Assembly: GCA_024405395.1 (NCBI GenBank)
Contig: JAKSOW010000001.1
Span: forward strand, 6,277 to 70,276
Direction: 5' to 3'
Source of the DNA: Kiritimatiellia bacterium
Lineage (GTDB): Bacteria; Verrucomicrobiota; Kiritimatiellia; RFP12; UBA1067
DNA length: 64,000 nucleotides
Part shown: positions 56,872 through 57,783 of the stretch, in pieces
Layout of the letters: each line of letters starts with the position of its first letter
How positions within the stretch are numbered: position 1 is the first letter of the stretch
The notes under the pieces: model-generated
The model's input: only the letters and a program-made list of their open reading frames with translations
What the model was told of the DNA's origin: nothing
Databases searched by the model: none
Position numbers and translations under genes: made by a program

Positions 56872-56951
56872 AGAAGGTCAAGAGGCTTCCTCGGCAAAGC
56901 CATTTTGGCAATGCGTTATGCAAGATTCGCAAGTCTGCATATACAGACTTG

Positions 56952-56960
56952 TGGTATAAT
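56952..56960 (+). promoter_or_regulatory. extended -10 element TGGTATAAT immediately upstream of the zeta-like gene
   Basis: The match to TGnTATAAT is perfect. It ends 9 nt before the ATG at 56970 (5 nt before an ATG at 56966), which implies a leaderless or near-leaderless mRNA. Confidence 0.4.
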
Positions 56961-56969
56961 AGGCGATGC

Positions 56970-57536
56970 ATGAAGCAACTGTATGTTCTAGCGGGAGCCA
57001 ATGGAAGCGGAAAGAGCACAATCGCAAAGGTGCTTTTGCCGACAGAAGGGATTGCGTATGTCAATCCCGATGACATCGCACGGGAGTTGCATCCAGATGA
57101 CCCACCTGCGGTCAAGATAGCCGCGGGACGGGAGACCTTACGGCGTATTGATGATCTATTGAGTAGAGGGGTCTCATTTGCTATTGAATCGACTTTGTCT
57201 GGGACGGGGTACGTGGGGATGTTTGAACGGGCCAAAGCCCTTGGTTACACCATAACGGTTGCCTACGTGTTTGTTGATTCCCCTGAATTTTGTCTCGAGC
57301 GAATCCGGGTTCGGGTTCAAAATGGCGGGCATGATGTTCCGGCAGATGATGTTCGTAGGCGTTACAGACGGAGCAAGGCGAATTTTGTATCGGCCTTTGC
57401 GCCTCTTGCAGATCATTGGATGCTGTATTACAATGGCGGCAATGATTTGCTGCTTGTGGCGCACGGGAATGGTTCAACCAACATTATTGTGCAAGATCGA
57501 TTTGATTCGTTTATGGAGGGACTATGCCAGAGATAG
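56970..57536 (+). CDS. zeta-toxin/COG4185-type P-loop ATPase (kinase-like)
   Basis: MKQLYVLAGANGSGKSTIAKVLLP contains the Walker A motif. The size is 188 aa. The track ORF begins at 56658, but that part overlaps DUF4186 in another frame. GC is visibly lower than in the flanks. Confidence 0.75.
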   Translation: MKQLYVLAGANGSGKSTIAKVLLPTEGIAYVNPDDIARELHPDDPPAVKIAAGRETLRRIDDLLSRGVSFAIESTLSGTGYVGMFERAKALGYTITVAYVFVDSPEFCLERIRVRVQNGGHDVPADDVRRRYRRSKANFVSAFAPLADHWMLYYNGGNDLLLVAHGNGSTNIIVQDRFDSFMEGLCQR

Positions 57537-57684
57537 TTGAAAAAATGACGCGCATCGGCAATTTGGCCGTTCATGCCGCACAAGAAGAGAATCGGCGTAA
57601 GGGAATCGCCAATGTCTATGTCCTCAACGGCAAGATCGTCTGGCAGCTTCCTGATGGAACGGTGACGTCAGTTCGGCCAGCTTG
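57523..57684 (+). CDS. 53-aa ORF overlapping the 3' end of the zeta-like gene (possible cognate partner/antitoxin)
   Basis: It is below the ORF-track threshold. My translation is MPEIVEKMTRIGNLAVHAAQEENRRKGIANVYVLNGKIVWQLPDGTVTSVRPA. It overlaps the upstream gene by 14 nt. It belongs to the same lower-GC islet. Confidence 0.4.
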
Positions 57685-57783
57685 AGTTCTTGAGCCTTTG
57701 TTGCCACAATCACTGGTGGCCAGTTTGGTGTTCTTTTCGTGTTTCCATTCGCCTTTTGGATGGGCTTATGGTAAAATGGAAAC

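Follow-up and report, generated by a model that had tools for sequence, protein, structure and literature searches.

Bioinformatics analysis of a 64,000-nucleotide (nt) stretch of Kiritimatiellia bacterium DNA (GenBank assembly GCA_024405395.1, contig JAKSOW010000001.1, positions 6,277–70,276; hereafter the window) revealed a two-gene cassette that is probably an inverted-order type II toxin–antitoxin (TA)-like module. Judging from sequence, a zeta-family P-loop kinase would be the toxin of this module, and a small protein encoded directly downstream would represent a new antitoxin family. As read from the window sequence, the first open reading frame (ORF), opening MKQLYVLAGANGSGKST, extends on the plus strand from an ATG at 56970 to a stop codon at 57534–57536 (56970–57536) and encodes the putative toxin of 188 amino acids (aa). 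The second ORF, on the same strand, extends from an ATG at 57524 to a stop codon at 57683–57685 (57524–57685) and encodes the 53-aa putative antitoxin. The original prediction, made from the sequence letters alone, had proposed these two ORFs, and both were recovered, the second with the peptide exactly as quoted. The overlap that it had described between them is real as well, with the correction that it measures 13 nt (57524–57536) and not 14. In a metagenome-assembled genome (MAG) of the Kiritimatiellae, the two products are annotated as "zeta toxin family protein" (MCQ2389813.1) and "hypothetical protein" (MCQ2389814.1), respectively.

The assignment of the kinase is based on Pfam, on hhalign and on the fold of a homolog. 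In hidden Markov model searches, the protein scored 43.8 bits against Zeta_toxin (PF06414; cut-off, 22.3), with residues 3–139 aligned to model positions 17–170, and 39.9 bits against AAA_33 (cut-off, 27). The Walker A motif that had suggested a zeta-like kinase in the first place is present at G9–T17 and includes K15. A profile of 17 kinase homologs (alignment A1) was compared by hhalign with zeta and PezT (probability, 83%; P, 9 × 10−6); the zeta reference sequence used matches PDB entry 1gvn exactly over residues 1–271. Residues K15, D34, E73 and T75 of the kinase align to K46, D67, E116 and T118 of zeta, and all four are invariant among the 17 homologs. The GTxR segment, defined in the literature as the motif that binds UDP-N-acetylglucosamine (UNAG) (PMC6362051) and located at G117–T121 of zeta, is not kept: the corresponding residues of the kinase are S74-T75-L76-S77-G78, in which the invariant S77 and G78 replace zeta R120 and T121. 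With GTxR replaced by STLS, UNAG is probably not the substrate of the kinase. The fold was judged on the model of a 38%-identical homolog, P0241 (predicted local distance difference test score (pLDDT), 84.6), in place of the window kinase. The top structural matches of this model found by Foldseek were PezT (2p5t; 4 × 10−9), zeta (1gvn/3q8x) and AvrRxo1 (4z8q), with polynucleotide kinase, PFK2 and shikimate kinase ranking lower. The protein is a short-type zeta-family kinase that groups with zeta, PezT and AvrRxo1, and not with the shikimate or gluconate kinases that had been held out as the alternative outcome.

The small ORF is a real gene that encodes a folded protein of an uncharacterised family. 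It has 143 homologs at 66–92% identity, and a profile search of 1.84 billion representatives retrieved 471 clusters (50% identity) at E ≤ 1 × 10−3, mostly of 50–90 aa. The invariant core of the family (alignment A2) reads AQ..NRR.G..NVY..NG...WQ.P.G. AlphaFold predicts, with a pLDDT of 94.7, a helix at residues 3–25 followed by a beta-hairpin at 30–34/37–41. The protein has no match in Pfam, NCBIfam, PADLOC or PHROGs; among solved structures, no PDB entry matches it by sequence, and none does so significantly by Foldseek (best E-value, 0.3).

Its association with the kinase is strict. Searching a single genome for each species with the kinase gave 80 kinase loci. In those that carry close homologs (L001–L027, L050, L054, L073 and L080), which belong to Kiritimatiellae, Elusimicrobia, Gastranaerophilales and one alphaproteobacterium, the small ORF is located directly 3' of the kinase gene, on the same strand and at an offset of −24 to +7 nt; at a few of these loci the kinase is frameshifted or the small ORF is damaged. 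The same arrangement was found on six further contigs, the genes of which were called independently, and on a plasmid of Persephonella marina (Aquificota). The co-occurrence on which the original prediction had been made to depend does hold: the partner overlaps or abuts the 3' end of every intact close kinase homolog examined, in at least four phyla and on the one Aquificota plasmid. The distance matrices of the two proteins are correlated (Mantel r, 0.87; 0/999 permutations; 44 unique pairs), and one natural protein of 270 aa, P0458, is a fusion of the kinase and the partner domain.

The two genes do not decay alike. A partner-based scan of metagenomes returned 80 loci, and the 64 with at least 570 nt of upstream sequence were counted. 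The kinase is intact at 33 of them, disrupted at two, present as a remnant at eight and absent at 21, so that at 31/64 small-ORF loci it is deleted, truncated, disrupted or absent. The remnants at two loci (L103 and L107) are internal deletions that keep the P-loop end. At others (L088 and L099/L100/L102) only the last ~14 kinase codons (ERYxxFMEGxC), which carry the Shine-Dalgarno sequence of the small ORF, are left, sometimes spliced onto foreign sequence. Since kinase remnants are found at several orphan small-ORF loci, those orphans derive from pairs. No intact close kinase without the partner was seen in the species-representative scan or on the further contigs examined. Such one-sided decay is expected of a kinase that does harm unless the small protein is present. 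The question raised at the outset, whether the order of toxin and antitoxin is reversed or the small protein has another role, is better answered by the inverted order, because the upstream partners of distant relatives share a G-x-P-hairpin motif with the 53-aa protein (a marginal similarity, described below), because fusions exist, and because the decay is one-sided.

Comparison with more distant kinases revealed several other partner layouts. Directly 3' of four of them, from Pyrinomonadaceae (Acidobacteria), Lentisphaeraceae (Lentisphaerae), Legionellaceae and Kiritimatiellia, lies an ORF of 71–84 aa with remote homology to the 53-aa protein (hhalign probability, 85%; P, 6 × 10−6). In a second kinase group of the Gastranaerophilales (L028–L038 and L067), the partner position is occupied by a helical ORF of 61–65 aa (MTDKDALELLNMFTTAAQIAKSRNK...), which was compared with the 53-aa protein and showed no homology to it; the presence of an unrelated ORF at the same position suggests that partners may have been exchanged within the kinase clade. 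Kinases of Cyanobacteria, Rickettsiales and E. coli IncP-like plasmids have instead an ORF of 81–92 aa at the 5' side, with a helix/G-x-P/hairpin pattern. The similarity of these upstream proteins to the 53-aa protein is marginal (probabilities, 44% and 27%; P, 2 × 10−4 and 7 × 10−4), and the E. coli plasmid protein on its own showed no significant match to the 53-aa family. On the IncP-like conjugative E. coli plasmid NZ_CP075702 (L165, 1741–2582), the zeta-family kinase and the overlapping upstream 83-aa hypothetical protein are encoded in the stable-inheritance region, between kleE and korA/incC/korB-like genes. In a Synechococcales MAG (L047, 1983–4549), a 671-aa PNP_UDP_1 plus SEFIR/TIR protein is encoded directly 5' of the kinase homolog; it matches PADLOC bSEFIR (162 bits), and its C-terminus has a partner-like G-x-P-hairpin motif (...LKAIGQPIYYSKNGKLIRENADG...).

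Longer forms of the kinase were also observed. The Verrucomicrobiaceae (Prosthecobacter, Brevifollis; L039–L079, e.g., L039, 3947–4714) have a highly conserved version of ~240 aa, the family of P0241, with 3931 hits and a C-terminal extension (EMSKIVLEASRVATEKMLDYYKRMGIKVTPQMTLAPE) that is predicted to be helical at residues 195–217 (pLDDT, 74–84). The extension may be a cis-acting partner; homology between it and the 53-aa protein was not established (hhalign probability, 3%; P, 0.015). Phaeobacter plasmids carry a different long form, of 246 aa.

An extended −10 promoter with almost no leader had been proposed for the kinase, and the box was found as described: TGGTATAAT is located on the plus strand at 56952–56960, 9 nt ahead of the kinase ATG, and is not accompanied by any match to a −35 element. 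In homologous loci, a TGnTAnnnT box ends 4–11 nt (most often 6 nt) before the kinase start in 36 of the 63 unique cases, compared with a background of 1.1% of random positions and 3.5% of the other long ORFs in the same loci. A Shine-Dalgarno-like 4-mer precedes the kinase at only 5/63 loci. The position of the box implies that the kinase mRNA would be leaderless or near-leaderless. The small ORF, on the other hand, is preceded by a Shine-Dalgarno sequence, GGAGG (57515–57519, plus strand), 4 nt 5' of its ATG. In the window this GGAGG is encoded inside the conserved C-terminal F-M-E-G codons of the kinase; it recurs across loci, with AAGGA instead in AT-rich hosts.

Boxes of this type are also found elsewhere in the window. 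The sequence TGNTATAAT occurs five times, compared with 0.37 expected from shuffles, none of which reached five, and two of the long minus-strand genes, at 37774 (−) and 25859 (−), have it 7–9 nt before the ATG. The gene for a PfkB sugar kinase that follows the cassette (GTG at 57784; region 57769–57786) is preceded by TGGTAAAAT ending 6 nt before its start. With such boxes before the PfkB gene and two others, this Kiritimatiellae host may make wide use of leaderless mRNAs transcribed from extended −10 promoters.

Other candidate control elements of the cassette fared less well. A palindrome, CAAGTCTG-CATATA-CAGACTTG (56930–56951), abuts the −10 box, and its membership in the cassette is uncertain. 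Its role as an operator is unsupported, because such repeats are not conserved across loci or enriched upstream of homologous kinases (10.9% compared with 7.6% in shuffles); likewise, no conserved operator was found in the homologous upstream regions. An intrinsic terminator 3' of the small ORF was rejected as well: the scan match at 57712–57724 is at chance level, and the region folds like its shuffles (z-score, 0.40). Further downstream, a 16-nt inverted repeat (57734–57749/57775–57790; 88% complementary) lies across the promoter box and start codon of the PfkB gene and may be a regulatory site for that gene.

As regards physical binding, inhibition, toxicity, substrate and trigger of the module, we infer the following course of events. 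Transcription from the extended −10 promoter 9 nt before the ATG would yield a leaderless bicistronic mRNA. Its first cistron, the kinase, has no Shine-Dalgarno sequence and would depend on leaderless initiation, and translation of the second would be driven by the strong GGAGG inside the last kinase codons, so that the 53-aa partner should be at least as abundant as the kinase despite its second place. Through direct binding, the partner would keep the kinase inactive, in the way that epsilon, PezA and Arc1 restrain theirs. Should the supply of partner fail, through loss of the element, shut-off of transcription or proteolysis, kinase molecules left free would transfer phosphate from ATP to an essential metabolite that contains a nucleotide, and growth would stop.

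Several observations weigh against the toxin–antitoxin interpretation. Many orphan partner genes look intact, so the small protein could have an independent function. Its rate of divergence is about as low as that of the kinase (mean pairwise identity, 0.57 compared with 0.55), which is atypical for antitoxins. The related 240-aa fused family appears to be widely conserved in Verrucomicrobiaceae, which is less typical of selfish TA modules. In addition, leaderless-type promoters precede other genes of this genome too and are not unique to the cassette.

Two alternative explanations are unlikely to about the same degree. According to one of them, the same two-gene module serves mainly in abortive infection or other anti-phage defence, the small protein restraining the kinase until infection releases it. 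Defence functions are known for many TA modules, the islet was acquired horizontally, and the distant Synechococcales kinase homolog follows directly after the bSEFIR defence-type protein with the partner-like motif. On the other hand, PADLOC-DB v2 matches the kinase at the P-loop only (best match, 17.9 bits; residues 2–24) and the small protein not at all; a search of IMG/VR for relatives of the small protein was negative; and the neighbours of the cassette are mostly other TA pairs and housekeeping genes, not recognised defence systems. A phage-defence role has no direct support. A phage origin was rejected too, on the IMG/VR result and because the kinase matched PHROGs only weakly, through ATPases and polynucleotide kinases, and the small protein did not match at all.

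The other explanation, which seems equally improbable, is a non-toxic two-subunit enzyme, in which the kinase acts on a metabolite or xenobiotic (e.g., in resistance or salvage) and the small protein is a specificity or activating subunit. Strict linkage, co-inheritance and fusion would fit an obligate hetero-oligomer equally well, the slow evolution of the partner suits a structural subunit, and the GTxR motif of the UNAG-binding toxins is missing. However, a mere cofactor should not outlast the kinase, complete with its Shine-Dalgarno sequence, at nearly half of the metagenomic loci. Furthermore, the closest characterised relatives, including the top structural matches, are all toxins (PMC5728571, PMC6362051, PMC4938570), and the distribution of the pair is patchy and mobile, in TA islands and on plasmids.

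A good deal less likely than either is that the 53-aa protein acts autonomously, as a small DNA-binding protein or regulator with an HU-like helix and beta-ribbon, and that the kinase is an optional passenger. Orphan small ORFs are indeed common. Moreover, in a TA island of the Kiritimatiellae (L082, 5693–6949), the kinase is followed by an 89-aa partner homolog with an extra C-terminal tail, and this in turn, with a 1-nt overlap, by a PIN-domain gene; the partner domain is thus N-terminal in a longer protein encoded ahead of a PIN gene, a position that in VapB antitoxins belongs to the DNA-binding domain. This domain may serve two toxins, or it may be the N-terminal module of a VapB-like antitoxin. 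Against autonomy, several orphans derive from pairs, as their kinase remnants show, the fusion and the Mantel correlation indicate a direct functional link to the kinase, and no conserved operator was found in the homologous upstream regions. Finally, an ordinary housekeeping kinase (of the gluconate, shikimate or adenylate type) that a small ORF overlaps by chance is refuted, given that the NCBIfam scores for gluconokinase, dephospho-CoA kinase and adenylate kinase, all from the P-loop alone, fall far short of the cut-offs while Zeta_toxin exceeds its own, that the small ORF has hundreds of homologs, a confidently predicted fold and a fixed position, and that the GC content of the islet is foreign.

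The toxin–antitoxin-like module is set in an islet of lower GC content that spans 56872–57783, from the stop codon of a DUF4186 gene to the start of the PfkB gene, and includes the entire cassette. Both halves of what had been claimed on composition agree with the GC profile, which, over 300-nt segments, gave values of 0.47–0.52 across ~56800–57850 and 0.60–0.68 on either side, where the flanking genes encode a HAD-IB hydrolase, the DUF4186 protein and the PfkB sugar kinase. On the basis of this foreign GC content, the islet is a horizontally acquired two-gene cassette. Its 5' neighbours are the HAD-IB hydrolase gene and the DUF4186 gene (56518–56871; 117 aa; host-like GC content), the latter separated from the kinase gene by a spacer of ~100 nt that contains the promoter; its 3' neighbour is the PfkB gene (57784–58692). 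An imperfect 27-nt direct repeat (78% identity), with one copy inside the DUF4186 gene (56753–56779) and the other just past the small ORF (57694–57720), roughly brackets the islet and could be due to chance or be an insertion scar. Further upstream, 5' of the HAD gene, a 2015-aa ORF (49537–55584) contains a protein-kinase-like HCDMHAGN...DFG segment.

The neighbourhood of the cassette differs from genome to genome. At one locus the neighbours are a Y1 transposase and an integrase, and elsewhere they include the TA pairs RelB/ParE, DUF3791/DUF3990, VapBC and DUF4160/DUF2442. Relatives of the kinase at 28–45% identity are found on 603 plasmids.

A broader proposal, which reaches beyond the window and is advanced here more tentatively than the module itself, is quite possible on comparative grounds: the 53-aa protein may found an undescribed and widespread antitoxin family (the 471 clusters), which would neutralise short zeta-like kinases that lack the UNAG motif, in either gene order or as a fusion. 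The substrate of these kinases would be other than UNAG, and the kinase-less copies of the partner would be anti-addiction genes. Some of the "orphan" zeta toxins would then also be explained by the family: a 2023 survey that clustered only upstream genes reported several orphan toxins among PezT/zeta homologs (PMC10532202), and the cassette may explain some of the toxins reported without an antitoxin where only that side was inspected. If this is true, the downstream partner is the missing antidote for one large zeta clade, and a new small antitoxin fold is added to those described. It would also represent a second and far more widespread toxin-first layout, of which, for zeta-like kinases, AvrRxo1/Arc1 has so far been the only case; apart from that pair, the literature searched yielded no zeta-family kinase described with a downstream partner. 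The combination of a leaderless toxin cistron with a Shine-Dalgarno-driven antidote cistron would suggest how such a layout stays safe, and the loss of the UNAG motif would mark a kinase clade with a different target. The family is clean and widespread, and the cassette is small.

Compared with known systems, the cassette displays several generic traits of type II TA modules: its genes are small, co-directional and overlapping, they are inherited together, and their distribution is patchy and mobile; moreover, no intact close homolog of the putative toxin stands without the putative antitoxin, whereas the latter often survives loss of the kinase. With epsilon/zeta of pSM19035 and PezAT of S. 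pneumoniae it shares the P-loop kinase fold, a small partner in the same operon, and the conserved Walker lysine and equivalents of the catalytic Asp67 and Glu116. However, zeta and PezT are proteins of 250–290 aa with a GTxR motif, whereas the cassette kinase has 188 aa and STLS in its place, and the epsilon/PezA antitoxin is an upstream-encoded three-helix bundle, whereas the cassette partner is encoded downstream and predicted to consist of one helix and a beta-hairpin. In neither sequence nor fold did the 53-aa protein show similarity to epsilon or PezA.

The short mycobacterial pairs (PezT(Mtb) Rv0366c/Rv0367c, and that of Mycobacterium sp. MHSD3) resemble the cassette more closely with respect to the kinase. 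These are Zeta_toxin/AAA_33 kinases of ~195 aa with a Walker A motif and a catalytic Asp and, like the cassette kinase, without the UNAG-binding residues, a likeness by description. Experiments have shown that they are toxic and that the neighbouring gene neutralises them (PMC5728571, PMC6362051). Nevertheless, the mycobacterial antitoxin is encoded upstream and is a ParD-like ribbon-helix-helix protein of 119–129 aa, whereas the cassette partner is encoded downstream and is unrelated, as is the DUF4186 protein encoded upstream; no upstream small ORF and no ParD or ribbon-helix-helix match were found anywhere in the cassette. In EzeT of E. coli, a zeta toxin and a cis-acting antitoxin domain form a single chain, and the clade of the cassette kinase likewise includes a fusion, P0458. 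The antitoxin domain of EzeT is N-terminal (PMC10532202), whereas the fused segment in the cassette clade is C-terminal. The 240-aa family of Verrucomicrobiaceae, with its conserved C-terminal helix, is a possible further EzeT-like fusion.

Based on gene order, the nearest parallel is AvrRxo1-Arc1 of Xanthomonas oryzae and relatives, in which the toxin gene also comes first and the small partner gene lies directly 3' of it, with a GC content under that of the host, and AvrRxo1 (4z8q) is, as noted above, among the top structural matches of P0241. According to the literature, AvrRxo1-Arc1 is a zeta-like TA pair of low GC content with a downstream antitoxin, and arc1 often remains whole where the toxin has been inactivated (PMC4938570), the same one-sided pattern as in the cassette family. 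The components nevertheless differ: AvrRxo1 has ~420 aa, is type III secreted and acts on nicotinamide adenine dinucleotide, whereas the cassette kinase has less than half that length. Arc1 is a 98-aa helical protein with a KExFD...(Y/L)ExxYY motif (PMC4938570), which is absent from both the 53-aa sequence and alignment A2, and the cassette partner, a helix plus beta-hairpin, shows no similarity to it. Thus, the cassette is not a member of the epsilon/zeta, PezAT, AvrRxo1-Arc1 or mycobacterial pairs, though it would work like epsilon/zeta and PezAT and, above all, like AvrRxo1/Arc1.

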